Positions 1-48,694 of a stretch of DNA of 48,694 nt are shown here, piece by piece. Source of the stretch: an uncultured Bacilli bacterium (GTDB lineage Bacteria; Bacillota_I; Bacilli_A; RF39; UBA660); assembly GCA_934097015.1 (NCBI GenBank), contig CAKONF010000004.1, positions 1-48,694 on the forward strand, given 5' to 3'. The position numbers and the translations under genes are program-made. Under the pieces are notes generated by a model that was given only the letters and a program-made list of their open reading frames with translations, made no database searches and had not been told where the DNA came from. The first letter of the stretch is position 1, and every line of letters begins with the position of its first letter.

Positions 1-1494
1 ACGTTAATAAGTGCAACAAATGTAGAACCAGGTGTTAGTTTTACAAAAATGTTTAGTGCAACAAATAATGGTAATAAGAAAATAGATGAATATGGAGTTG
101 CACTAGAGAATGTAATAAATACATTAGAAAGAACAGAGGATTTAGTATATACAATATCATGTACTCAATATTTAAAACAAGGATATAGTATTACAAAAGA
201 TGGAAATAATTACATAGTAAATGGAACAACGAGTGGAACATGTAATGGAGTAAGTGAAGAACAAATATTTCCAACAATGGGTAAAATACTAGTGACGAAT
301 TCTATAGAAGATGATAAAGTACAAGTATATACATTAGTCGTAACGTATAAAGATACAGGAACAGATCAAAGCATTGATATGAATAAACAATTTAGTGCAA
401 AAGTAAACTTAGTAAATCCAAGTACATTCGGAGTGCTAGGAAGTGGAACACTTGCAAGCATGATAATAGAAAATGGTGCTGATGTAAAAATAAGTGACAC
501 TGAAACAAAAAATACAAAAATTATCAAAACTACAGTTAATGTAAATGATGCTGCGACTGGATCATCATGGAGTGATGAAATAAATGATTTTACAAATGAT
601 GGGCTGTTTAGAACAATAGATGATTATGGGTCTGCATATTATTTTAGAGGACCTGTCACTAACAATTATATTGATTTCGCAGGAATGTGTTGGAGAATAG
701 TTCGTGTTTCTGGCGATGAAAGTATAAAACTTATACTTGAAGATCAATATGAGGTATGTTCTAATAATATGGCTGGAAATTGGGATATATCAATAGATGG
801 GCGTGGTTTATTTGGATATACAAAATATGATGAAAATACATTAACCGCTTCTGATGGAACTAAGAATGCGAAAAAAATTTATGTAGCAGATTATTTAACT
901 GGCAAAACAAATAGTGATAAATCAATGGCAACAGCATTTAAAAAATTCCAAACTGGACCTTTATTAAATTATTTATCTTATTTGAAAGTAGGAGATTGGT
1001 GTTTAAACGATAAAGCATATGCAACAGAAACTAATGATACAACACCTCTAACCAGTCAAGAAATATCAGATAAACAAATTAAAGGAATAACATATTATTA
1101 TGATTCACACGTTCGTTTAAAAGGTAAAAAAATAAAAGAACCTAAAATAAAATGTAATGGAACCATAATGACAAAATTTGATGAAAATAATTCTACAAAT
1201 ATGTATGTGGGAGCGTTAACAGCAGATGAAGTAGTATATTCTGGTAAATATTTAACCAACAATTATCAGATAAATAATTATTTATATTTTTGGACTTTAT
1301 CCCCTGACTATTACAATGGAAAAGAAAATTACGATTACATATATTTAGTAACACATAATTCAGTTATATATAGTAATGATGTGTGGGGACGCAGTCGCTC
1401 ACTTCGTCCATCCATAAATCTAAAATCAGGAATCAAAATAACAAGTGGAAATGGAACAAGTTCGAATCCTTATACAGTTAAACTTCCTAATTGA
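1..1494 (+). CDS. Secreted surface protein of the multi-copy TasA-like/variable/'WRIVR-GDGT-NPY' family; 5' end lies outside the window
   Basis: Frame 1 is open from base 1 (TLISATNVEPGVSFTKMFSATNNG...) and aligns with residues ~60-90 of the paralogs at 27441 and 29313. The C-terminal ~300 aa closely match 13601..15526 (NFAGMCWRIVRVSGD, DKSMATAFK, GDWCLNDKAYATET, RPSINLKSGIKI-SG-GT). Confidence 0.85.
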   Translation, partial: TLISATNVEPGVSFTKMFSATNNGNKKIDEYGVALENVINTLERTEDLVYTISCTQYLKQGYSITKDGNNYIVNGTTSGTCNGVSEEQIFPTMGKILVTNSIEDDKVQVYTLVVTYKDTGTDQSIDMNKQFSAKVNLVNPSTFGVLGSGTLASMIIENGADVKISDTETKNTKIIKTTVNVNDAATGSSWSDEINDFTNDGLFRTIDDYGSAYYFRGPVTNNYIDFAGMCWRIVRVSGDESIKLILEDQYEVCSNNMAGNWDISIDGRGLFGYTKYDENTLTASDGTKNAKKIYVADYLTGKTNSDKSMATAFKKFQTGPLLNYLSYLKVGDWCLNDKAYATETNDTTPLTSQEISDKQIKGITYYYDSHVRLKGKKIKEPKIKCNGTIMTKFDENNSTNMYVGALTADEVVYSGKYLTNNYQINNYLYFWTLSPDYYNGKENYDYIYLVTHNSVIYSNDVWGRSRSLRPSINLKSGIKITSGNGTSSNPYTVKLPN

Positions 1495-1514: not shown

Positions 1515-1682
1515 TTGAATAAAATATCTTTTTTTGATATAGTTTTATTAAGGTAGAAATACCAGTAAATAAATTTTCTATTCATAAAAAAAGATGTTAA
1601 TTAAAGACTTTATACTTCTCTCCCGACCTCGAATTTTTGTTCGAGGGGGTATAAATAAGAAGTAAAATAAAGTCTTTTTTGT
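1515..1682 (+). promoter_or_regulatory. Leader element copy A: sigmaA-like promoter, GNRA hairpin and long terminator-like hairpin with a G5 tract
   Basis: TTGAAT(1515-1520)-17 nt-TATAGT(1538-1543) with TG at -14/-15. GGTA-GAAA-TACC at 1552-1563. Nested stems AAAGACTTTA(1603-1612)/TAAAGTCTTT(1668-1677), ACTTCT/AGAAGT and CCTCGAA-TTTTTG-TTCGAGG. G5 at 1645-1649. T-run at 1675-1680. Related copies at 13428, 27149 and 48563. Confidence 0.6.
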
Positions 1683-1773: not shown

Positions 1774-2249
1774 TTGTTAGATATGAAAGGTAAAGTGAAG
1801 CATATGAATAGAACTAAAAAAATATATTTCTTATTTAGCTTTGTAATGATAATTGCATGTTATACACTAAATAAAAGTTATAGTCTATTTATAGATAGCA
1901 AAGAACAAAATGTAGTAGATTCTAAAGTACCTAATTTAGTTAGTGAATTATCTGTTAATAATATAATTTTAAATAGTAAAGAAGAATACTTAATAAAAGA
2001 AACAATAACTAATACTAGCTAAGTACCAATAAATTATGCATTAAATAGTACAGGAAGTAATTATACTATTAAAATAACAACAGAAGTTATGCAAGTTCAT
2101 TTTTCATAAATTACTCTGGATATGTCAACGCTGACAGCTTACATACAAATGTAATTTCATTCCTTCCAACAATAACTCTCTTATCAAGCACACAAACAAC
2201 AAATGGTGATGGAACAAAAACAAATCCATATATAATTAATACTAATTAA
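1774..2249 (+). pseudogene. Decayed, internally deleted paralog of the surface-protein family
   Basis: The signal-peptide-like N-terminus (MNRTKKIYFLFSFVMIIACYTLNKSYSLF) runs into an in-frame TAG at 2020-2022. The family C-terminal motif (FLPTITLLSSTQTTNGDGTKTNPYIINTN*) is readable only in another frame, ending at 2249. About 1.4 kb of the usual gene body is absent. Confidence 0.7.
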
Positions 2250-2903: not shown

Positions 2904-3852
2904 TATATTAGATGTTATAAAAAATAAAGATGATTTTGTCATAACAGCGCATCATCATCCAGATGGAGATGCAATTGGAAGTAGTTTGGGCCTTTATTTA
3001 GCACTAAAAAAAATTGGCAAAAAAGTAGATATAGTTATCGAAGGAGCTCCAAAAACATTTAATTATCTTGAAGGATTTAATGAAATAAAAGAATATAGTG
3101 ATAAAAAGTATAATGTAGGAATAATAGTTGATAATGCAGAAATAAATAGAATAAATAAAAAAGATTTACTTGACAAAGTAAAACAAAAGGTTGTTATAGA
3201 TCATCATATAAGTAATACACTTTATGGAGATATAAATTATATTGAAACTTTATCAAGTTGTTCTATGATTATATACAAACTAATTAAAAAATTAAATATA
3301 GAAATTGATACTAATATAGCAACAGCAATATATACAGGTATTTTAACAGATACAGGATGTTATAAAAATAAAAATGTAAATAGTGATACATTTATCGTAT
3401 CAAGTGAACTATCTAAAATAATAGATATAACTAAAGTAATTAAATTAGCAACATCAACAATTACTAAATCAGAATTTTCTCTAAGAAAAATTGGTATAGA
3501 AAATCTAGAGTTTTATAAAAATGATAGAATAGCTTTAACATATATAACAATAAATGATGTTATAAAATGTAATGGAACAAAAGAAGAATGTAGTAGTTTA
3601 GTAAATATTGCGAGAGAAATAAATACAGTTGAAGTATCTGTTCTTATAAGATATTTTGATGATGAAATTAGAGTATCATTAAGAAGTAATAATATAGATG
3701 TAAATAAAGTTGCAGAAAAATTTGGTTGTGGAGGCCATAAATATGCATCAGGAATATCATTCAATCCTGAAGAAAAACAAGAAATAATAAAAGAAAAAAT
3801 AATTAAAGAATTAGAGAGTGCTATTGATGAATGGGATAATAATAGTAAATAA
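2896..3852 (+). CDS. nrnA: DHH/DHHA1 phosphoesterase (NrnA-like oligoribonuclease/pAp phosphatase)
   Basis: HHHPDGDAIGS, VIDHH and GCGGHKYASG motifs. ATG at 2896 (MNDILDVIKNK) overlaps the rbfA stop. Confidence 0.8.
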   Translation: MNDILDVIKNKDDFVITAHHHPDGDAIGSSLGLYLALKKIGKKVDIVIEGAPKTFNYLEGFNEIKEYSDKKYNVGIIVDNAEINRINKKDLLDKVKQKVVIDHHISNTLYGDINYIETLSSCSMIIYKLIKKLNIEIDTNIATAIYTGILTDTGCYKNKNVNSDTFIVSSELSKIIDITKVIKLATSTITKSEFSLRKIGIENLEFYKNDRIALTYITINDVIKCNGTKEECSSLVNIAREINTVEVSVLIRYFDDEIRVSLRSNNIDVNKVAEKFGCGGHKYASGISFNPEEKQEIIKEKIIKELESAIDEWDNNSK

Positions 3853-6596: not shown

Positions 6597-6782
6597 ACAA
6601 TAAATTTACCATAATAATAATGGTGATAATTTTGAAAAACAGAAAAATAAAAACTGAATTTAATTCGTTATATCCAACAAAAAATACAAATATTTACAAC
6701 CTATATGATAATTATAATTTAAAACAAAAAAAAGTAAATAAAGATGGATTTAATGAAATTACAAAAAATAAACATTTCAAAT

Positions 6783-6807
6783 AGTATTGTAAAGCAATAC
6801 TTTTTTT
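6783..6807 (+). terminator. Rho-independent terminator-like hairpin
   Basis: AGTATTG-TAAA-GCAATACT followed by T7. Confidence 0.55.
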
Positions 6808-6842
6808 GATATTATTAAATATAGATTAGGATATGTGATAAT

Positions 6843-8891
6843 ATGGAACGTAATAAAAAAATTATTATAAGTGTAGTAGGTATAATATTAGTTTTATTAG
6901 GATTAATAGGTTTTACATATGGATATTACTTAACAAATATAAGAGGCAATACAAACGATAAATCTATAACAGTATCTTTAGAAACATTAGAACTAACATA
7001 TGATGATGGAAATGGATTTATAGAAGCAAAGGATGTACTACCAGGAGAAGAAATAACTACAAAGAAATTCACAATAACAAATACAGGTACAAAAAAAGTA
7101 GTTAATTACACAGTATATTTAGAAGATGTAGTAAATACATTTGCAGATAAAAGTGATTTAGATTTAACACTAAAATGTAGTTCTACAAACGGAACATGTA
7201 ATGGAAATGAAATGATATTTCCAAGTAGTAATAGTTTATTAGTATTAAATGATATAGAAGTAGGGGAAGTACAAAGTTATGAACTAAAAGTAGTATTTAA
7301 AGAAACAAATGATGATCAAACAGATAATATGCAAAAGAATATATCAGGAAATATAATAATAAAAGATTTTAGAAGTACAAAACAAGAAATAGTAAAAAAT
7401 GAAGGTACAAAAAATATAACACTTGATAATAGTATATTAACAAACTCATTATTATTATATGGAAATAGTACTCAAGAGACAAGAAGTGGTAAGAACTTAA
7501 TACCTTATCCTTATGCTTCAACTACTTTAACTTCTAATGGTGTTGTATGGACTGACAATAAAGATGGAAGTATTACAACTAGTGGTACAGCAACTGATTA
7601 TTCAGCGTTTATTTTATTTAATAAAATGGACATAAGTGCGTATCAAGGGAAAAATTTAACAGTATCTTTAAATTCAACTGATAATGTTAATATAGTATGT
7701 CAAATAGCACTCTATTCTTCAGATGGAACAACATCACTGTATAGTAATTCATCTAGTAATGATGTGACATTAAGTGTGCCGACTGAAGGAAAATATTTAT
7801 CATTATATTTAAAACGAAATAATAATGTTGCAACTAGTGGAACAATAAGACCACAGTTAGAATTAGCATCTACTGCAACAAGTTATGAAAAATATGGATC
7901 AAGTCCATCACCAAATTATCCAAGTGAAATTAAAAGTGTAGGAGATTTAGTATCGGATGCAAGTGATGCAAACAATGGCAAATATAAAATTCCAGTTAAA
8001 ATTACTGGTAAAAATTTGTTTGATAGCAAAGAATTAATGAATTTTGGTGCAACATTACAAAGTGATGGTAGTTATTATTGGGAAAAAGCCACATCTTCAT
8101 CAAATATTATATGGGAAAACAGTGAAGGTTATACTGGTAGATATACCATTACTTCTAAAATAAAATATAATAGTTCAACAGCTAGAGGAGAGTTTTTTAT
8201 ATTTAATTATACAGATGGTACAAAATATGAATATTGGGGAAGAGGTTTTCCTACTGAATATACTGAATTTACATTTACAACTCCTGCTGATAAAGTACTT
8301 AAAAATATTACAATTAGTTATGGTACTATCAATGTATCTACAAATATGTTAGACATACAATTAGAAAAAAGCAGTACATTAACTGAATATGAGTTATATA
8401 AAGAAACAGTATCAAATATATATTTGGATGAACCATTAAGAAAAATAGGTAATTATAGTGATTATATTGATTTAAAAAATAAAAAAGTTGTTAGAAATAT
8501 TGTAGAATATACTTTTACTGGAAATGAATCTTGGACTTTGGGACAATATCCGCCTACTGGAGCCTATCAATTTTATAAAAATAAATTTACTGATATGACA
8601 TCTGATGTTTCAGAAACTTTAAATACTCATTTTTCGAATGCTAGGAAAATTAATGGAAGTGGACTAGGTGGATCATATAATATATTTCCATCTACTGAAC
8701 TAAATTTAACTACTGTAGATGAATTTAAAACATGGTTAAAAAATAATAATGTAAAAGTAAATTATGTAATTACTACTCCAACAGAAAGTAATATTGATTT
8801 ATCAAATATAAAACTATATGATGGAATAAATAATATAACTATTGATACATCAATTAGTCCATCTAAAATAAGTACAGAATACATTAACTAG
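6843..8891 (+). CDS. Secreted protein with a SipW-type signal peptide and TasA-like N-domain, fused to a different C-terminal region (two 'GKNL...' modules)
   Basis: N-terminus MERNKKIIISVVGIILVLLGLIGFTYGYYLTNIRGNTNDKSITVSLETLELTYDD... parallels the family, as does ...QSYELKVVFKETNDDQTDNMQKNISGNIII. The C-terminal ~470 aa lack the WRIVR domain. Confidence 0.8.
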   Translation: MERNKKIIISVVGIILVLLGLIGFTYGYYLTNIRGNTNDKSITVSLETLELTYDDGNGFIEAKDVLPGEEITTKKFTITNTGTKKVVNYTVYLEDVVNTFADKSDLDLTLKCSSTNGTCNGNEMIFPSSNSLLVLNDIEVGEVQSYELKVVFKETNDDQTDNMQKNISGNIIIKDFRSTKQEIVKNEGTKNITLDNSILTNSLLLYGNSTQETRSGKNLIPYPYASTTLTSNGVVWTDNKDGSITTSGTATDYSAFILFNKMDISAYQGKNLTVSLNSTDNVNIVCQIALYSSDGTTSLYSNSSSNDVTLSVPTEGKYLSLYLKRNNNVATSGTIRPQLELASTATSYEKYGSSPSPNYPSEIKSVGDLVSDASDANNGKYKIPVKITGKNLFDSKELMNFGATLQSDGSYYWEKATSSSNIIWENSEGYTGRYTITSKIKYNSSTARGEFFIFNYTDGTKYEYWGRGFPTEYTEFTFTTPADKVLKNITISYGTINVSTNMLDIQLEKSSTLTEYELYKETVSNIYLDEPLRKIGNYSDYIDLKNKKVVRNIVEYTFTGNESWTLGQYPPTGAYQFYKNKFTDMTSDVSETLNTHFSNARKINGSGLGGSYNIFPSTELNLTTVDEFKTWLKNNNVKVNYVITTPTESNIDLSNIKLYDGINNITIDTSISPSKISTEYIN

Positions 8892-12995: not shown

Positions 12996-13289
12996 ATGTT
13001 ATAGTAGTATATAAAACCTGAGCTTTTGTGTTTGTTAGTGCTTACCCAATCATTATAAAAATGAGAGGGAATGTATAGATGAAAAGAATACTTTATTATA
13101 TTAAAGAAATATTAAAAAGTATATTTTTAATATATGTTTTGAAAATAATCTACTTCCTCCTACAAAAAGGAGTTTAGATTAACTCCAATAGGCACTAAAT
13201 ATTATTTATGTTAGGCTACCTATAATGGTTTGATTAATATCATATTTTACCTCTTAATTTATTTATAATAAAAATAAATATGTTAATGT

Positions 13290-13362
13290 AAAATAAAAGC
13301 CGCATAATTAATATGCGTGCCAACCTTTATGGGTAGGCATTACAAATGTAATTGCTCTACTT
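13290..13362 (-). ncRNA. Candidate ~70-nt small RNA (own promoter, three hairpins, intrinsic terminator)
   Basis: Read on the minus strand: TTGACA(13397-13392)-17 nt-TAAACT(13374-13369). Hairpins GCAATTAC..GTAATGC and GCCTACC..GGTTGGC. Then GCaCGCATA-TTAAT-TATGCGGC followed by TTTTATTTT (13320-13290). Confidence 0.3.
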
Positions 13363-13427
13363 AATATAAGTTTAACATTACGATAGTGATGTGTCAATAA
13401 AAAATTTTACAAATTTCACAAAAAATA

Positions 13428-13600
13428 TTTACAATATTTACTAGTTTTGATATATTATATTTAAGGTAGAAATACCTAAAAACAAATTTTACGATTCATG
13501 AAAAAACAAGAAACATACTTCTTCCCCAACCCCAAAAATCGTTGGGGGGGGGGGTATAAAGAAATATGTTTTTTCGTGCAAATAAAGGAGTGTGAAAGAA
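13428..13600 (+). promoter_or_regulatory. Leader element copy B: promoter, GNRA hairpin and C-rich/G11 terminator-like hairpin abutting the RBS
   Basis: TTTACA(13428-13433)-17 nt-TATATT(13451-13456) with upstream TG. GGTA-GAAA-TACC at 13465-13476. ACATACTTCTT-CCCCAAC-loop-GTTGGGG... with G11 at 13544-13554, then AAGAAATATGT and TTTTTC (13570-13575). RBS AAAGGAG at 13584-13590. Near-identical to the copy at 48563. Confidence 0.65.
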
Positions 13601-15526
13601 ATGAATCGTAAGCAGAAGATAATAGTAAGTACAACAGGAATATTTTTAGTACTTTTAATTCTTGTAGGATTAACTTACGCATATTTTTTAACTAGAATAA
13701 ATGGAAATAAAAACGATAAAAGTATAAGCGTCACAACTGCTAACTTAAGATTAGTATATAGTGATGGAACAGATGGAGTAATAGGTGGAACTAATATAGA
13801 ACCAAGTGATACAGTATACACAAAAACATTTACTGTAAAAAGTGAAGGAAATAAGAATATAGAGTATGGAGTATATTTAATAAACGTGATAAATCAATTA
13901 ACAAGAAAAGAAGATGTTAAATATACATTAGAATGTACAACTGATGGGACGATTACATGTAATGGAGTAAATGAAACAACATTTCCAAGTGGAATAAGCC
14001 AATTAATAACAAATACAATAGAACCCGGAAAAACTCATACATACACATTTAAATTTACATACAAAGATACAGGAACAGACCAAAGTATAGATATGGGAAA
14101 AGAACTAAGTGCAAAGATACAAATATTTGGAAAATTACCAAGTGGAGAATATTTTCCATATGAAGAAGAAACTTTATCATACAACATAATAAATAATGCA
14201 AAAAACAATTTAAATGGTACAGAATATTTAGAAACGCCTAAAACAAAAGTAGCTGAAGAAGTAGTTGAATTTAAATATAAAGCTATAGAGAAAAATTTAC
14301 CCGGGAATAATATTCAATCAGCACCTCCAACTTATAAAGATTACTATATTACTTATGGTACTGGTTATACACTTGATGAAAATACTGGCAAATTTTCTTT
14401 AACAGGAGTATCAACTTGTAAATATAGTGAATGCTATTCTAATTTAGCGGGAAAATACATATATGCTCTAATAGTCTCTGCTTCAGAAACTGATATACAA
14501 AAAGAGTCGAGCAATTTATCTGAAATTTTTAAGATTAAAAAGGCTTCTGAACCATCTTCAACTTCAATTTCCGTGGAAGGAACTACTTTTACAACAACTG
14601 CTTATGGAACTGAAAAAGTTTTAAGTAAAACTGAAGATGACTATGGTATAAGTTATTATTATAGGGGAGTTGTTGAAGATAATTATGTAAATTTTGCAGG
14701 AATGTGTTGGAGAATAGTACGCGTTTCTGGAGATGGAAGCATTAAATTAATATTAGAAGACCAAGATAATACTTGTACTTCAAGTAATGGTAATACTACT
14801 ACAACAAGTGGCTTAATCGAGAACTTTGGTTATACTGAATATGCGGTAAATACACTAACTGCAACAGACGGAACAACCAATTCATCTAAATTGAGATTAA
14901 TGAACTACCTAAAGGGTGGAACATATAATGATAAATCAATGGCAACAGCATTTAAAAATTTCCAAATTGAAACTCTCACAAATTATTTATCTTATTTAAA
15001 ATCGGGAGATTGGTGTTTAAATGATAAAGCATATGCAACAGAAACTGATAATACAACACCATTAACTAGTCAAGAAATATTGGATAAACGAATTAAAGGA
15101 ATAGCATACTATTACGATTCATATATACGTTTATATGGAAAAACATCAAAAGAACCAACATTAAAATGTAATGGTACAAATATGATGAAATTTGGTGATG
15201 GAACAACAAATATGTATGTAGGAACATTAACAGTAGATGAAGTAGCATATGCTGGCGGCTCAACTACTAGAAATTCTAAAGGATATTATTACATATCAAA
15301 AAAAATTCCTTTATTATCACCAGCATATATAGTTATCGCTTCCAATCCTTCAACGTCCATAAATGAGCAACTGGTATTTTACGCTTCCGATAATGCAAAA
15401 ATAAGTTTGACATCATTATCCCAAATGGAAAACTTATATTTTAAACCTTCCATAAATCTAAAATCAGGAATTAAAATTTCAAGTGGAGATGGAACAAAAG
15501 AAAAACCTTATGAAATAGCAAATTAA
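13601..15526 (+). CDS. Secreted surface protein, family member (TasA-like N-domain + variable middle + WRIVR/GDGT-PY C-domain)
   Basis: MNRKQKIIVSTTGIFLVLLILVGLTYAYFLTRINGNKNDKSISVTTANLRLVY (SipW-type signal). KFTYKDTGTDQSIDMGKELSAKIQI. NFAGMCWRIVRVSGDGSIKLILED. KPSINLKSGIKISSGDGTKEKPYEIAN*. Confidence 0.9.
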   Translation: MNRKQKIIVSTTGIFLVLLILVGLTYAYFLTRINGNKNDKSISVTTANLRLVYSDGTDGVIGGTNIEPSDTVYTKTFTVKSEGNKNIEYGVYLINVINQLTRKEDVKYTLECTTDGTITCNGVNETTFPSGISQLITNTIEPGKTHTYTFKFTYKDTGTDQSIDMGKELSAKIQIFGKLPSGEYFPYEEETLSYNIINNAKNNLNGTEYLETPKTKVAEEVVEFKYKAIEKNLPGNNIQSAPPTYKDYYITYGTGYTLDENTGKFSLTGVSTCKYSECYSNLAGKYIYALIVSASETDIQKESSNLSEIFKIKKASEPSSTSISVEGTTFTTTAYGTEKVLSKTEDDYGISYYYRGVVEDNYVNFAGMCWRIVRVSGDGSIKLILEDQDNTCTSSNGNTTTTSGLIENFGYTEYAVNTLTATDGTTNSSKLRLMNYLKGGTYNDKSMATAFKNFQIETLTNYLSYLKSGDWCLNDKAYATETDNTTPLTSQEILDKRIKGIAYYYDSYIRLYGKTSKEPTLKCNGTNMMKFGDGTTNMYVGTLTVDEVAYAGGSTTRNSKGYYYISKKIPLLSPAYIVIASNPSTSINEQLVFYASDNAKISLTSLSQMENLYFKPSINLKSGIKISSGDGTKEKPYEIAN

Positions 15527-27148: not shown

Positions 27149-27320
27149 TTGATTACTAATTGTTAATTTGATATATTATATTTAGAGTAGAGTTGTTAAA
27201 AAATGAATTATTATATATTGTTGAAAAGTTAATTAAAGGCTGTATAACTTCTCTCCCGACCTCGAATATTTGTTCGGGGGGGGGGGTTATAACGAAGTTA
27301 AAAATATGGTCTTTTTTTGT
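27149..27320 (+). promoter_or_regulatory. Leader element copy C: promoter and long terminator-like hairpin with G11
   Basis: TTGATT(27149-27154)-17 nt-TATATT(27172-27177). Outer arms AAAGGCTGTATAACTTC.../...GAAGTTAAAAATATGGTCTTT pair with G-U wobbles relative to copy A. Core CCCGACCTCGAA-TATTTG-TTCGG. G11 at 27276-27286. T7 at 27312-27318. Confidence 0.6.
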
Positions 27321-27366
27321 GTGCTATATCGACAAAATATTCTAGTAAAATATGCTTTAATAAAAC

Positions 27367-27383
27367 TAGTACTATAGGCCCAT
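27367..27383 (+). promoter_or_regulatory. Conserved 17-mer TAGTACTATAGGCCCAT (also at 1724-1740) between leader hairpin and gene
   Basis: Identical 17-mer in copies A and C, each followed ~25-30 nt later by AAAAATTATATAATA (a possible second -10). Confidence 0.4.
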
Positions 27384-27440
27384 GTTAATAATAAAACAAA
27401 AATTATATAATAATTATATATGATAAGGAGTAGATATCAA

Positions 27441-27983
27441 ATGACAAAGAAAGAAAAAATAATAGTTAGTACGGCAGGAATATTTTTAGTACTTTTAATT
27501 CTTGTAGGATTAACTTATGCGTACTTTTTAACAAGAATAAAAGGAAATACAAATGAAAAGAGTATAAGTGTATCGACAGCAAATTTAATATTAGAATACG
27601 CAGATATAGACGATATTGTTGTAGGTGGAGAAAATGTAGAACCAGGTACAACATGGACTAAAAAATTTAGTGCAACAAATAAAGGTAGTAAAAAAGTAGA
27701 ATATGGTGTGGCACTAGAAAATGTTTTAAATACATTAGAAAGAACAAAAGACTTAGTATATACGTTAAATTGTACCAGTAGCTTAGGGACAGATTGTAAT
27801 AAAGTAGAAACAGAACAAGAGTTTCCTGTAATAGGAACAATATTAATAACAAATAACATAGAACCAGAAGAAGTACAAAGTTATGAACTAATAGTTTCAT
27901 ATAAAGAACAAAATGAAGATCAAAATGTTGATATGAATAAAAAAATATATGCAAAGGCAAATATAGTAGATCCAAAAACATTT
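27441..27983 (+). repeat. 543-bp direct repeat shared with 29313..29855 (N-terminal domain cassette)
   Basis: The first 181 codons of the two tandem genes differ at 13 aa positions by my hand count. Similarity stops abruptly after 'IVDPKTF'. Confidence 0.85.
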
Positions 27984-29300
27984 AATGTATATGAAAAATC
28001 TCAGTTAAATAATATTATAATTGCAAGTGCACGTAATGCAAGTAATAATAGTGATAGTAAAAGAACTTCTTATGGTAGTGAAATAACTGCATTTGATTCT
28101 ATTACATGGACTAAATATTATGATGAATTTACAACTTCATATGAAGAAACTAATCCAAGTATAACGTATTGGCAAATAGCAGATACATTTAATGATATAG
28201 AAAATAATAATACAACAAAACCAACTACAATAACAGAAGCAGTTGGAAAATATATAAATATTTCGTATCCAGACTATAAAATAGTATTTTTAGAATCATA
28301 TAATGAAACAACTCAAGTTGCAACATTTAAAAATTTAAAAGTTGAATATGAAAAAGTTTTAAACAATGCTCCAGATGATTATGGAACAAGTTATTATTAT
28401 AGAGGAAATCCCCAAGATAATTATGTATCATTTGCAGGATTGGTATGGAGAATAGTAAGAATAAATGGAGATGGAACTGTAAGAATAATATTAGATGATG
28501 AAGGAATAAAAACAGCATTTAATAGCTATGAAAATGTTTATGCAGATAATGCTGGAGTAGGATATATGTATGGAACACCAGGAAGTGATACATATTTAAA
28601 AACACACGAAAATATTAATAGTAGTACTGTTAAACAAGTCCTTGATTCTTGGTATGAAGAAAATATAGAAAACAATACATTACATTATGAAAAGTATTTA
28701 GCAGATACATTATTTTGTGGTGATAAATCATTAGCAGATAAAGATTTAGTTCAAAATGATGGAACTGGTCTAGGTTATGGAAAAAATAAAACATATTATA
28801 AAAAAACAGAAAATTCTATAAAATTAGTCGAAAATGTTTTAACATTAAAGTGTGCTAATTATGAAGATAATAATTATTCAAAGTACACATCAAAGCTTGA
28901 AAATAATACAACTATAAACGACAAAATAAATATTAATAATGATCTAAAACATCCTATAGGACTAATATCGTTTGATGAAGTGGTATACGCTGGATTTAAT
29001 GGAAAAACTCCATACGGTTTTAATTATGGATATTATTTATATAGAACAGATTTTGTTAATTATGTGTTCTGGAGTATGACACCTTCAGTTATGGTGGATG
29101 ATAATACTTATGTATATACATTTAATAAAAATATTAATTTTGCAACAACTGTTTCAAAAGAAGAAATATTAAACCAACGTTTAAATACAATAATTGAATA
29201 TAGAGCTAGACCAGTAATAAATTTACGTTCAGACTTATTAATAAGTAGTGGAGATGGAACAGAAACAAATCCATATCAAGTAAAATTGCCAACAGAATAG
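27441..29300 (+). CDS. Secreted surface protein, family member (first of a tandem pair)
   Basis: RBS AAGGAG. MTKKEKIIVSTAGIFLVLLILVGLTYAYFLTRIKGNTNEKSISVSTANLILEY. SFAGLVWRIVRINGDGTVRIILDD. ARPVINLRSDLLISSGDGTETNPYQVKLPTE*. Confidence 0.9.
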   Translation: MTKKEKIIVSTAGIFLVLLILVGLTYAYFLTRIKGNTNEKSISVSTANLILEYADIDDIVVGGENVEPGTTWTKKFSATNKGSKKVEYGVALENVLNTLERTKDLVYTLNCTSSLGTDCNKVETEQEFPVIGTILITNNIEPEEVQSYELIVSYKEQNEDQNVDMNKKIYAKANIVDPKTFNVYEKSQLNNIIIASARNASNNSDSKRTSYGSEITAFDSITWTKYYDEFTTSYEETNPSITYWQIADTFNDIENNNTTKPTTITEAVGKYINISYPDYKIVFLESYNETTQVATFKNLKVEYEKVLNNAPDDYGTSYYYRGNPQDNYVSFAGLVWRIVRINGDGTVRIILDDEGIKTAFNSYENVYADNAGVGYMYGTPGSDTYLKTHENINSSTVKQVLDSWYEENIENNTLHYEKYLADTLFCGDKSLADKDLVQNDGTGLGYGKNKTYYKKTENSIKLVENVLTLKCANYEDNNYSKYTSKLENNTTINDKININNDLKHPIGLISFDEVVYAGFNGKTPYGFNYGYYLYRTDFVNYVFWSMTPSVMVDDNTYVYTFNKNINFATTVSKEEILNQRLNTIIEYRARPVINLRSDLLISSGDGTETNPYQVKLPTE

Positions 29301-29312
29301 GAAGTGAATTAA

Positions 29313-29855
29313 ATGACAAAGAAACAGAAAATAATAGTAAGTACGACAGGAATATTCCTAGTACTTTTAATTCTTGTAGGATTGACTTATGCATATTTCT
29401 TAACAAGAATAAAAGGAAATGAAAATGAAAAAAGTATAAGTGTATCAACTGCAAACTTAATATTAGAATATGCAGATATAGATGACATTGTTGTAGGTGG
29501 AGAAAATGTAGAACCAGGCACAACATGGACTAAAAAATTTAGTGCAACAAACAAAGGTAGTAAAAAAGTAGAATATGGTGTAGCATTAGAAAAAGTTGTA
29601 AATACTTTAACGAGAAGATCGGATTTAGTATATACGTTAAATTGTACTAGTAGTTTAGGGACTACTTGTAATAAAGTAGAAACAGAACAAGAATTTCCAA
29701 TAATAGGAACAATACTAATAACAAATAACATAGAACCAGAAGAAGTACAAAGTTATGAATTAATAGTTTCATATAAAGAAATGAATGAAGATCAAAGTGT
29801 TGATATGAATAAAAAAATATATGCAAAGACAAATATAGTAGATCCAAAAACATTT
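29313..29855 (+). repeat. Partner of the 543-bp direct repeat at 27441..27983
   Basis: See 27441..27983. Confidence 0.85.
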
Positions 29856-31193
29856 GGGGCATTAGGAAGTGGAACACTTGCTAGTGCCTTAGTTGAAAGT
29901 GCAAAAACTGCTGCTGCTTCAAATGATCAAATAAGAACAATTTATAAAGAAGTTCCATTAACTAGTCCTGGAAATGAAATTAGTATAACTAAATACAAAA
30001 CAGAAAATGAAAGTGGAATAGAATTTAATACAGAAGAAGAATTTTCTATAGAAGAACAATATCAAAATTATTATTGGACTTATGCTACAGGTTATAGTGT
30101 TGATGAAACTACAGGAAAAATGTCCTTAAATAGTCCAACTGTTTCAGAAAAACAATATAATTCTATGTATAATGAATTAGTTGGAAAATATATAGCTTCA
30201 TCTACAATACCTAACAACTGTAAAGAAACCCAAATTATAGCAGAAAACACCAAAAATTTAAATAATATATACAAAATCACATCAGCAACCAATTCTAAAT
30301 TAACAGTAAAAAGAATTATACCCACTGCTATTAGTCAAGAAAAAACTTTATCTTTGAGCGAAGATGATTATGGATTAAGTTATTATTTTAGAGGTGGTAT
30401 TGTAGATAATTATGTTAATTTTGCAGGAATGTGTTGGAGAATAGTCAGAATTCAAGGAGATGGAAGTGTCAAAGTAGTTTTGGAAGACAAAAATACAACG
30501 TGTGAATCAAATCAGTATACTGGTAATTGGAATTATTCAAAAGTTAATTTTGGATATGATTACACTAATGGAAAAGATAGAATTCCAGCATTTTTAAATC
30601 CTATTACTGAAAAAGAAACTGCATTAGCTACAAAAGCAGAGGAATTTCAATCTGAATTGGATAAAAAAATAAAACAAACATATGGAGAAAATGAAAGCAA
30701 TTCATCTAAATTAAAAGCAGGAGATTGGTGTTTAACAGAAAAAATATATAATTCTTACTATACAACAGCGGGTTTAAGACTATGGAAAGATGATACAAGA
30801 TATGCATCAAATATTTGTGATGGCACAAAACTAACAAATTTTTATGATAATAAAGATATGTATGTTGCTACATTGACTGCAGATGAAATAGTTTTTTCAG
30901 GGACGATAGTAATATCAAACGATAGCATTCATAATGTTTATAACACAAGTCATTATCTATTTAATGATTATATGTTAGAATTAGAAGACAAAAGTTCATT
31001 TAAATATTATACACTAACATATAGCAGTAAATTAGTTTATTATAGAGTATTTACCGTAGCAGTTCCAGGATTTATTGTCCCACAAATGGCAAACTTTGGA
31101 GAAATAGATTTTAGACCAGCAATAATTTTATCCTCAGATACACAATTATTAAGCGGAAATGGATTAAAAACAAACCCATACGAAATAAAATAA
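29313..31193 (+). CDS. Secreted surface protein, family member (second of the tandem pair)
   Basis: Start lies 12 nt after the previous stop, RBS GGAAGTGA. Same N-domain. NFAGMCWRIVRIQGDGSVKVVLED, GDWCLTEK and FRPAIILSSDTQLLSGNGLKTNPYEIK*. Confidence 0.9.
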   Translation: MTKKQKIIVSTTGIFLVLLILVGLTYAYFLTRIKGNENEKSISVSTANLILEYADIDDIVVGGENVEPGTTWTKKFSATNKGSKKVEYGVALEKVVNTLTRRSDLVYTLNCTSSLGTTCNKVETEQEFPIIGTILITNNIEPEEVQSYELIVSYKEMNEDQSVDMNKKIYAKTNIVDPKTFGALGSGTLASALVESAKTAAASNDQIRTIYKEVPLTSPGNEISITKYKTENESGIEFNTEEEFSIEEQYQNYYWTYATGYSVDETTGKMSLNSPTVSEKQYNSMYNELVGKYIASSTIPNNCKETQIIAENTKNLNNIYKITSATNSKLTVKRIIPTAISQEKTLSLSEDDYGLSYYFRGGIVDNYVNFAGMCWRIVRIQGDGSVKVVLEDKNTTCESNQYTGNWNYSKVNFGYDYTNGKDRIPAFLNPITEKETALATKAEEFQSELDKKIKQTYGENESNSSKLKAGDWCLTEKIYNSYYTTAGLRLWKDDTRYASNICDGTKLTNFYDNKDMYVATLTADEIVFSGTIVISNDSIHNVYNTSHYLFNDYMLELEDKSSFKYYTLTYSSKLVYYRVFTVAVPGFIVPQMANFGEIDFRPAIILSSDTQLLSGNGLKTNPYEIK

Positions 31194-47767: not shown

Positions 47768-48574
47768 ATGTTAAAAAAAGTATATATAGAAATAACTAAT
47801 GACTGTAATTTATCATGTTCATTTTGTATAAAAAATAAAAGAAACAAAAAATATATGTCATTTAATGAATTTAAAATTATATTAAACAAACTTAATGGAT
47901 ATACAGAATATTTATATTTACATGTATTAGGAGAACCATTACTTCATCCAAAAATAAATGAATTTATAGATTATGCTAGTAAATATTATAAAATTAATTT
48001 AACAACAAATGGTTATTTAATTCAAAATATAATTAATAATAAAAATATAAGACAACTAAATATATCATTACAAAGTTATAATGAATTATATAATATTAGT
48101 TTAGAAGAATATATGAATAACATATTTAAAACAGTAGATAAATTAAAAAAATATACATATATATCATATAGAATATGGATAAAAAATAAATATACAAAAG
48201 ATATAATAAATTTAATAAATAAAAAATATGATAGTAAATTAGATATTAATAATTTAAAAAACAACACTACAATTACAAAAAATATATTTATTAGTACTAA
48301 TGAAGAATTTATATGGCCTGATTTAAATAATGATTACTATAATGAAATTGGTACATGTTATGCTTTAAAAGATCATATAGGTATATTAGTAGATGGAACT
48401 TTAGTACCATGTTGTTTAGATAGTAAAGGAATTATAAATTTAGGAAATATATTTGAAGACAATTTAAATGATATTATAAAAAGTGATAGATATCAAAATA
48501 TGTTAAATGGATTTAAAAATAATAAAAAAATAGAAAACTTATGTAAAAAATGCAAATATATATTGCACCATTAA
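47768..48574 (+). CDS. Radical SAM protein with a SPASM/twitch-like Cys-rich C-terminus
   Basis: EITNDCNLSCSFC (CxxxCxxC). C-terminal CY...PCC...CKKCKY cysteines. Confidence 0.8.
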   Translation: MLKKVYIEITNDCNLSCSFCIKNKRNKKYMSFNEFKIILNKLNGYTEYLYLHVLGEPLLHPKINEFIDYASKYYKINLTTNGYLIQNIINNKNIRQLNISLQSYNELYNISLEEYMNNIFKTVDKLKKYTYISYRIWIKNKYTKDIINLINKKYDSKLDINNLKNNTTITKNIFISTNEEFIWPDLNNDYYNEIGTCYALKDHIGILVDGTLVPCCLDSKGIINLGNIFEDNLNDIIKSDRYQNMLNGFKNNKKIENLCKKCKYILHH

Positions 48575-48694
48575 TTTAAAAATGATATATTATATTTAAG
48601 GTAGAGATACCTAAAAACAAATTTTACGATTCATGAAAAAACAAGAAACATACTTCTTCCCCAACCCCAAAAATCGTTGGGGGGGGGGGTATAA
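48563..48694 (+). promoter_or_regulatory. Leader element copy D (B-type), truncated by the window end
   Basis: TGATATATT extended -10 (48583-48591). GGTA-GAGA-TACC at 48600-48611. The rest is near-identical to 13477-13557, including G11 at 48679-48689. Confidence 0.6.

Follow-up and report, generated by a model that had tools for sequence, protein, structure and literature searches.

A polymorphic poly-G tract in the terminator-like leader hairpins of a gene family of uncultured gut Bacilli: a candidate slippage-driven switch

We analyzed a stretch of 48,694 nucleotides (nt), hereafter the window, which is contig CAKONF010000004.1 of assembly GCA_934097015.1 from an uncultured Bacilli bacterium (RF39; UBA660). 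The window carries four copies (A to D) of a 5' leader with the anatomy of an intrinsic terminator, placed in front of paralogous genes for proteins with a signal-anchor N-terminus; the 3' arm of the leader hairpin contains a run of G, 5 nt long in copy A and 11 nt long in copies B, C, and D. These leaders have covarying stems, a G-U signature on the sense strand and tract lengths that are polymorphic between assemblies, and they are restricted to this gene family. The tract is probably a functional hypermutable switch. As a slipped-strand contingency tract placed within the terminator hairpin's 3' arm, the G run has about an even chance of acting by refolding of the terminator. More tentatively, and with somewhat less than even confidence, we propose a "mutable antiterminator" in which homopolymer slippage would programme co-transcriptional folding and more than 15 dispersed TasA-like paralogs would be switched independently and stochastically; in this proposal the tract lengths would be kept one or two slips below the switching point. 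We infer that the transcript would stop at the U-run, that tract length would alter read-through and that long runs would correspond to the ON state.

Results

Four terminator-like leaders and three G11 tracts in the window

A reading of the window from its letters alone (the sequence-only reading) had described four loci built of a promoter, a long imperfect hairpin and a T-run, and all four were present as described (Table 1). A pattern for the 5' arm of the hairpin matched the window exactly four times (0.01 expected by chance), and the covariance model R1 also found exactly four copies. Each copy has a sigmaA-type promoter with a 17-nt spacer and, as claimed, a TG-extended -10 box, followed by the long hairpin and T6-7. 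A stable stem-loop with an immediate U-run therefore lies between promoter and start codon in the place where an intrinsic terminator had been suspected ahead of the ribosome-binding site, and the anatomy bears this out. The hairpins fold far better than shuffled sequence (z-scores of -4.9, -5.6, -2.4, and -3.0 for A, B, C, and D, the last of which is truncated). The stem sequences quoted earlier for A, C, and B/D were correct, and so was the distribution of a small GNRA-capped hairpin near the 5' end, which reads GGTA-GAAA-TACC in copies A and B and GGTA-GAGA-TACC in D and is absent from copy C.

The coordinates confirmed G5, G11, G11, and G11 for copies A to D. The three G11 tracts are the only runs of G or C longer than 5 nt anywhere in the window, whose content of guanine plus cytosine (GC) is 23.2%. 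A G7 pattern is expected there 0.06 times by chance, in agreement with the earlier argument that G11 is unlikely to be fortuitous: the tract is an uninterrupted homopolymer far longer than composition predicts, found three times in 23% GC DNA.

In copy B the promoter P1 matches 10 of 12 hexamer positions and is TG-extended; P1-type promoters also precede the leaders in other metagenome-assembled genomes (MAGs). Its small stem-loop begins where the transcript is expected to start and would thus occupy the very 5' end of the RNA. The long hairpin, which lies downstream of an A-rich linker, has the 5' arm AAACAUA-CUUCUU-CCCC-AA-CCCCAA and, after the loop, a 3' arm composed of UUGGGG-GG-GGGGG, a UAUAA internal loop and AGAA-AUAUGU; the minimum free energy of 13463-13600 is -42.2 kcal/mol. 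The G11 tract, which is part of the transcribed leader and of the hairpin arm ∼90 nt downstream from the -10 box, was also found in the independent assemblies L213 and L214. The T-run had been said to end 8 nt before the Shine-Dalgarno (SD) sequence; the distance is 9 nt to AAAGGAG and 12 nt to GGAG.

The G5 hairpin of copy A had been called perfectly complementary. Only its apical 7 bp (CCUCGAA/UUCGAGG) are so, and a GA bulge and an asymmetric internal loop remain elsewhere. The gene after copy A is a remnant: only two parts of a 547-amino-acid (aa) homolog are left, residues 1-94, where there is an in-frame stop, and residues 507-546. The proposed link between the short run and a decayed gene thus stands for copy A, but it is a single case, and other paralogs with interrupted purine runs face intact genes.

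Conservation and covariation of the leader

The covariance-model search that had been suggested was carried out with R1 in 93 sources and gave 42 copies, all in sense orientation to family genes and upstream of the gene wherever its start was mapped. A pattern scan of metagenome DNA returned at least about eight true leaders among the matches listed, most of the others being chance matches in unrelated GC-richer contigs. The architecture is kept in at least four sequence types and has a fixed order: promoter, 5' stem-loop, linker, AU-rich basal stem, middle stem, all-pyrimidine strand, small apical stem-loop, G run, short AT-rich internal loop, and U-run. The 5' stem-loops of other leaders stand in the same place with different sequences (GAGUA/UACUC, GAGUAG/CUACUC, AAGUA/UACUU, and GGAUAG/CUAUCC). 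The basal stem exists in at least five versions, GACUUUAU/AUAAAGUC, GGCUGUAU/AUAUGGUC, UCAUAU/AUAUGA, ACAUA/UAUGU, and AUUAUAUA/UAUAUAAU, each directly followed by the U-run (T6-8 in every full-length copy), and the middle stem is of the ACUUCU/AGAAGU type.

The covariation-like support claimed for an RNA structure was strengthened by compensatory changes in 38 distinct sequences. In these, 98.2% of the alignment cells hold standard pairs, as compared with 58-70% when the partners are slid, and the seed alignment agrees; double changes occur at seven pairs (39 cells), and none of 500 shuffles reached the observed score. Few independent evolutionary events stand behind these figures, because the sequences group into a small number of subtypes. 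G-U pairs are frequent and would be A-C mismatches on the opposite strand, so that the structure belongs to the sense RNA and not to the DNA or an antisense transcript. Searches of Rfam with three leader types, at the gathering threshold and at permissive E-values, matched no family, the best E-values being chance microRNA or small nucleolar RNA hits.

The 5' arm of the upper hairpin is wholly pyrimidine (CUUCUUCCCC-AA-CCCC, CUUCUCUCCC-GA-CCUC, or UUCUCUCUC), which allows a poly-G strand to pair with it in any register, by G-C as well as G-U pairing. Other paralogs have A-interrupted runs (GGGGAAGGG, GGGGGAGGAA, GGGAGGAGGG, GGGAGGGG, and GGGAGGGGGG), and these purine-run variants co-vary with the pyrimidine arm: in locus L003, GGGGAAGGG stands opposite CUCUUUC, the opposite strand having changed from C to U to match (CG to UA changes in helix 2), and in other variants the arm contains U's able to pair with the A's. 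Three paralogs (L017, L021, and L064) have an AU-only hairpin and a U-run without a G/C core.

The protein at L214 is 87% identical to that of copy B, and the two leaders are 100% identical from the -10 box through the T-run, with a few differences between the T-run and the ATG; here the leader is more conserved than the gene. Locus L219 (60-400) shares its protein and the 3' half of its leader with the group L216-L220, and its other half, with promoter and 5' stem-loop, is of the L066 type. Such mosaic leaders (L219, and also L214) suggest recombination or gene conversion between paralog leaders. In addition, the L001, L002, L007, L024, L058, L066, L069, L079, and L219 leaders contain one or two insertions of a 20-nt motif, TTGTACA(AAA/TTT)TAATTCGCAA, located between, or inside, the 5' stem-loop and linker. 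The window lacks this motif, which might represent a protein-binding site or a mini-insertion.

Length variation of the G tract

We inspected 77 homologous genome loci for G runs. Runs of at least 7 G were present in 26 of them, with lengths of 8 to 13, always as G on the coding strand, and no C run of 7 nt or more was found on the coding strand at these loci. All but those of L028, L066, and L077 are situated 50-165 nt ahead of the mapped gene start. The P0115 locus is represented by nine independent assemblies, with G11 in six and G12 in three; the 300 nt upstream are otherwise identical except for two single-nucleotide polymorphisms (SNPs), the protein is identical, and both lengths occur in SPAdes-style, MEGAHIT-style, and scaffold-style assemblies. 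Five assemblies of the P0107 locus have G11, G12, G13, G11, and G12, three of them with identical flanks. Locus B (window and two assemblies) and locus D (window and four assemblies) have G11 in all. Two of the four ortholog sets examined therefore show a length polymorphism while the flanks are identical or differ by 1-2 SNPs and the protein is 100% identical. The notion of a contingency tract gained support from these two sets but not from those of B and D. Among the paralogs of one MAG with the same flanks, the runs are G8, 9, 9, 9, 9, 9, and 10, and another MAG has G13 and G11.

Many independent assemblies break in the tract or at most a few dozen bases from it (L044 1, L046 14, L004 48, L031 41, L126, L139, L162, L163, L227, and window 48694); G counts at contig ends are unreliable. 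Such breaks are expected from a multi-copy leader and possibly also from read-level length heterogeneity.

In three distant homologs (L070, L076, and L077; GC ∼31%), G8-9 lies exactly between TTGACA/TAGACA and TATAAT/TATACT, in a 16-nt spacer and without a hairpin. This would be the arrangement of a classical promoter-spacer poly-G switch for the same family, and poly-G switching would thus have been recruited more than once in it.

Position of the leader between the family promoter and the gene

The open reading frame (ORF) at 6843-8891 (682 aa) has only its first ∼175 residues in common with the family (46% identity) and a different C-terminal part, i.e., the N-terminal module of the family is combined with different C-terminal domains. 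Its region (6780-8891) has a family-type promoter (ATTGTAA ... TTTTTTTGATATTAT) directly before the SD and no leader, and P1 is the ordinary promoter of this leaderless relative. Since the same promoter directly precedes the SD there, the leader appears to have been inserted after the family promoter and ahead of the SD, and P1 is best taken as the predicted promoter of the gene itself. From U-run to SD there are 9-20 nt in the B type and in L007, L055, L058, L066, L069, and L202 (A/C type), too little space for a further promoter, so that these genes would be expressible only by read-through.

Predicted folding thresholds and proposed mechanism

The tract length n was varied in silico from 2 to 17 for each leader (RNAfold), and P(terminator) was read out as how often the last bases before the U-run pair with the 5' arm. 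Up to a threshold the terminator fold dominates, with P of ∼0.9-0.99 in the majority of A/C- and B-type leaders. Once the threshold is passed, the G run captures the entire pyrimidine strand, the middle-stem ACUUCU included, and the 3' strand of the basal stem is released. The predicted threshold is n = 13 for the B type (observed, G11), n = 14 for copy C and most A/C types (observed, G10-13), and n = 10 for type iii (observed, G8-10). Observed lengths are 0-4 steps below the threshold, mostly 1-2, and the thresholds roughly follow how many pyrimidines the arm contains. For the natural P0107 alleles G11, G12, and G13, P(terminator) is 0.87, 0.75, and 0.46, respectively; type iii paralogs straddle the threshold, with P of ∼0.57-0.82 at G8-9 and 0.04 at G10. 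The earlier idea that a length change would alter the hairpin geometry thus holds in the folding scans, which flip between a terminator and a non-terminator fold; an effect on expression would be the predicted consequence.

We propose the following sequence of events. Transcription would begin at P1, and the RNA would start with the small stem-loop, probably a 5'-end stabilizer. In the long hairpin the AU-rich basal and middle stems would abut the U-run, and the upper part would be formed by pairing between the pyrimidine strand and the G run. As long as the run is short or of intermediate length, the lower pyrimidines would remain free for the purine strand near the U-run, the terminator would form and the gene would be OFF or low. 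Each added G would push the upper helix down into the middle stem. Past the threshold, the G run, which is transcribed first, would keep the whole pyrimidine strand and leave the basal 3' strand single-stranded; without a hairpin next to the U-run, RNA polymerase would enter the gene (ON). As the G run is transcribed ahead of the competing purine strand, kinetics should favor its pairing further. Replication slippage would then set the choice between terminator and antiterminator in a stochastic and heritable manner, paralog by paralog.

The gene family and its hosts

The genes downstream of the leaders encode proteins of ∼620-640 aa with a signal-anchor N-terminus. An N-terminal match to camelysin/TasA is weak in the paralogs at 27441 and 29313, one of which has PF12389 above the cut-off; the protein of copy B has no relatives of solved structure and no NCBIfam match. 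More than 1,200 homologs were found, all of them unnamed and from gut metagenomes, in MAGs of uncultured "Bacilli" and "Tenericutes" from human (Hadza and other) and rabbit (Lapin-019) samples. Paralogs are many per genome, at least 17 in CAKOHW. Their neighbors in the window are chromosomal housekeeping genes (RluA family, radical SAM protein, tyrosyl-tRNA synthetase, ThiI, guanylate kinase, YebC, and a two-component system).

Further features of copies A to D

Two paralogs stand in tandem behind copy C (27441-29300 and 29313-31193). Between U-run and SD, copies A and C contain ∼120 extra nt (1683-1790 and 27329-27420), with a conserved promoter-like pair, (T/A)(C/T)GACA-16-TATGnT/TAAGAT, and a conserved element, TAGTACTATAGGCCCAT(A/G)T; both also occur in L015, L024, L046, L079, L144, and L216-L222. 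The extra stretch is a candidate for a second promoter or an additional RNA element.

The promoter of copy D overlaps the stop codon of the radical SAM gene. The gene that copy D was presumed to face beyond the window was found in four other assemblies (L223-L226), in which the leader is complete, has G11 in all and is followed by a family paralog. The tail of L223 (3791-4420) matches window 48558-48694 at 100% over 137 nt and, after a gap of 215 nt, the first 278 nt of the window at 97%. As this tail matches both ends of the window, the truncated gene at 49-1494 was probably served by copy D and is probably its gene. Both contig ends lie within the leader/paralog repeat, and adjacency, circularity, and duplication are indistinguishable there.

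Divergent from copy B we noted a candidate small RNA (sRNA) with a strong promoter and two hairpins, the terminator stem of which has two compensatory pairs. Homologs lie upstream of family genes in L055, L047, L042, L058, and L013, and the candidate gave neither an Rfam nor a tRNA match.

Table 1. Positions of leader features, candidate RNA and distant spacer runs (window coordinates for copies A to D; locus coordinates for L070, L076, and L077)
Feature	Position	Strand	Remarks
Copy A leader	1515..1681	+	promoter TTGAAT-17-TATAGT 1515-1543; R1 score 72.9 bits
Copy A 5' hairpin	1552-1563	+	
Copy A long hairpin	~1603-1677	+	
Copy A G5	1645-1649	+	GAGGGGG
Copy A T-run	1675-1680	+	
Candidate sRNA	13288-13397	-	~75 nt; RNA at 13288-13366
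Candidate sRNA, promoter	13397..13369	-	TTGACA-17-TGtTAAACT
Candidate sRNA, terminator	13317..13301	-	with U-run
Copy B promoter P1	13428..13456	+	-35 TTTACA 13428-13433; 17-nt spacer; TG 13448-13449; -10 TATATT 13451-13456
Copy B 5'-proximal stem-loop	13464..13477	+	A-GGUA-GAAA-UACC-U; begins ~8 nt past -10 box
Copy B A-rich linker	13478..13510	+	conserved motif AAUUUUACGAUUCAUGAAAAAA; A type has AAUUUUCUAUUCAUAAAAAAGAU (alignments)
Copy B long hairpin	13511..13568	+	from fold and covariation
Copy B G11	13544..13554	+	homopolymer in 3' arm; proposed slippage tract
Copy B U-run (T6)	13569..13574	+	predicted intrinsic-terminator tail; directly abuts basal stem
Copy B SD and gene	13587..15526	+	GGAG 13587-13590; ATG 13601; 641 aa; family paralog, signal-anchor N-terminus
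Copy C leader	27149..27318	+	promoter TTGATT-17-TATATT 27149-27177; R1 score 90.6 bits
Copy C long hairpin	~27235-27311	+	
Copy C G11	27276-27286	+	
Copy C T-run	27312-27318	+	
Copy D leader	48563..48694	+	promoter TTGCAC-17-TATATT 48563-48591; G11 48679-48689; cut by window end
L070 promoter-spacer G run	~2924-2960		
L076 promoter-spacer G run	~107-140		
L077 promoter-spacer G run	~2096-2130		

Discussion

Points that weigh against terminator refolding by slippage

Several results weigh against a slippage-controlled terminator. The B and D sets are invariant at G11 (3 and 5 assemblies), and the tract is thus not always polymorphic at the consensus level. Homopolymers of 11-13 nt are error-prone in short-read assemblies, though both lengths were recovered from three assembler styles. 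The folding thresholds are equilibrium predictions for G-U-rich helices; the leaders of L066, L069, L007, and L015 never fall below P = 0.5, and those of L221/L222 stay at or above 0.84. The G11 and G12 alleles of P0115 are both predicted terminator states and equivalent. The closeness of observed lengths to the thresholds is not independent evidence, since both depend on arm length, and the covariation does not separate the terminator fold from the predicted antiterminator fold. Finally, the A, C, and type iii leaders carry 100-130 nt after the U-run, with promoter-like hexamers, and their genes may be independent of read-through.

Alternative explanations

The G run could be only a structural block, an easy route to a stable stem opposite a pyrimidine strand at 23% GC, in a hairpin that serves upstream genes as an ordinary terminator or insulator or else stabilizes the mRNA; length changes would then be neutral slippage or assembly noise and have no part in regulation. 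We consider this unlikely. It accounts for the insulator position after housekeeping genes: the -35 boxes of copies C and D abut or overlap the stops of housekeeping genes without a terminator of their own, and the hairpin must therefore also end their transcripts. It also agrees with the prediction that G11 and G12 make no difference at several loci and with the retention of the hairpin without a G/C core in L017, L021, and L064. However, mixed purine runs would suffice structurally (L003, L048, L051, L073, and L185), and yet a pure 8-13-nt homopolymer is kept in many species despite extreme AT pressure. A terminator between the sole promoter and the SD, as in the B type, would be senseless unless read-through is regulated, and poly-G also occurs in promoter spacers elsewhere in the same family.

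A hypermutable regulatory tract that acts via a trans partner and not by self-refolding ranks next and is likewise improbable. The partner could be an sRNA with a C/U-rich loop, an antiterminator protein on the linker motif or, by cross-talk, another paralog leader. Tuning of the pairing with a C/U-rich RNA by the length of a G-repeat that lies in a 5' untranslated region (UTR) is established (PMC8295292). Immediately 5' of the hairpin, the linker motif UUCAUAAAAAAGAU is preserved in the different leader types while playing no part in pairing, and the conserved candidate sRNA lies divergently upstream of copy B and other family genes. Against these stands the C/U-rich partner already present in cis, which changes in step with the purine run; the window yielded no trans RNA that carries a long C/U tract (no C run >5), and no antiterminator protein gene was identified beside the loci.

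A switch at the DNA level, in which the G run is the spacer of a second promoter within the hairpin and transcripts without the 5' arm escape termination, seems very unlikely. L070, L076, and L077 have exactly such an arrangement, and TTGGGG-17-TATGTT (B type, at G11) and TTGGTC-17-TATATA (type iii, at G9) would fit. But these hexamers are weak (7/12, under the scan threshold); TAnnnT is common in this AT-rich DNA; the A/C type has no such pair, as its spacers would measure 25-26 nt; L014 and L033 do not preserve the -35-like positions; and the stem covariation and G-U pairs are left unexplained. With respect to the gene promoter, the window tract is not between -35 and -10, a placement seen only in the three distant homologs.

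It is highly improbable that P1 and the hairpin form an independent sRNA gene of ∼110 nt that travels with the paralogs. The promoter and terminator make a unit of sRNA size, and copies of the A, C, and type iii kinds have downstream room for a separate gene promoter; B-type and several A/C-type leaders, in contrast, end 9-20 nt before the SD without another promoter, and P1 is the ordinary promoter of leaderless family members.

Attenuation by a leader peptide, with a small ORF across the repeat and slippage moving the ribosome stop relative to the terminator, is established for Pil1 (PMC3894217), and in copy B an ORF from ATG 13498 runs through the G run to end after the SD (G11), just after the T-run (G10) or at the TAA right after the run (G12); this model is largely refuted and hardly credible here, as an ATG-started ORF across the run exists in only ∼10 of 24 distinct leaders, without an SD and with neither frame nor peptide conserved, and is missing from copy C, L047 (B type), L066/L069, and L024; of the type iii leaders, L001 alone has it. 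A two-tetrad G-quadruplex (G11 as four GG tracts with single-G loops) was rejected because it leaves the G8-10 types unexplained without ad hoc flanks. The alternative of a riboswitch-like leader, raised in the sequence-only reading, found no support.

Comparison with known systems

Phase variation by repeats usually acts through promoter spacing, reading frame, or binding-site spacing, and rarely through the length of a leader peptide or sRNA target. Homopolymer contingency loci in promoter spacers include the poly-A of Mycoplasma hyorhinis vlp, the poly-G/C of Neisseria porA/opc, and the poly-G of Treponema pallidum tpr. They resemble the present loci in having a long homopolymer before paralogous surface-protein genes, with lengths that vary between otherwise identical sequences, and the distant homologs of the family use this very form; in the window, however, the tract lies past the promoter, in the arm of a leader hairpin. 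In Bacillus subtilis pyrG, Meng, Turnbough, and Switzer reportedly found in 2004 that poly-G RNA pairs with the C/U-rich 5' strand of the terminator and prevents termination, the extra G's being said to arise from stuttering of RNA polymerase at the 5' end at low CTP, a physiological signal. The pairing of poly-G with the C/U-rich 5' strand of a leader terminator is what we propose here as well; our G's, in contrast, are encoded in the DNA, lie in the 3' arm and vary by mutation.

The tlpB leader of Helicobacter pylori has a variable G-repeat (6-16 G) in the 5' UTR, whose length sets the pairing with the C/U-rich sRNA RepG; the effect is gradual, not strictly ON/OFF, and post-transcriptional, and the partner is the terminator loop of a trans sRNA (PMC8295292). 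Both systems would let the length of a 5'-UTR G-repeat set the outcome of pairing with a C/U-rich RNA segment, but in our leaders the pyrimidine partner belongs to the hairpin itself, in cis and beside the U-run, which suggests control of transcription termination. In Streptococcus gallolyticus Pil1, GCAGA repeats lie in a translated leader peptide and act through ribosome occupancy of the terminator (PMC3894217). There too a simple sequence repeat (SSR) in the 5' leader decides over a premature terminator upstream of surface-structure genes in a Firmicute; in our leaders, by contrast, the repeat itself makes up a portion of the terminator stem, and no leader ORF is conserved. The Clostridioides difficile cwpV switch is an invertible DNA segment that a recombinase flips and that acts on termination in the leader. 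In the flgB switch of the same species, a recombinase flips an invertible DNA segment, and leader termination or Rho decides between ON and OFF (PMC7446863). The ON/OFF state of surface proteins is thus set by termination in the 5' leader in these cases as well, although they have no homopolymer and no slippage.

The earlier reading knew of no described example, and the literature on repeats or homopolymers together with terminators, attenuators, or antitermination, covered incompletely, gave none in which the repeat is part of the terminator stem. Each of the nearest systems shares one half of the design, and the combination appears to be new.

Biological meaning

If the proposal is correct, these leaders would represent a third route of SSR phase variation besides promoter spacing and reading frame, one that is purely RNA-structural. 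The design would be compact and portable: the mutation rate would set the switching rate and the helix length would set the threshold. Abundant uncultured low-GC gut Bacilli, found in Hadza and other human gut metagenomes, would then run a large variable surface-protein system, which would bear on immune evasion, phage evasion, and strain tracking and would also explain the assembly breaks at these loci.

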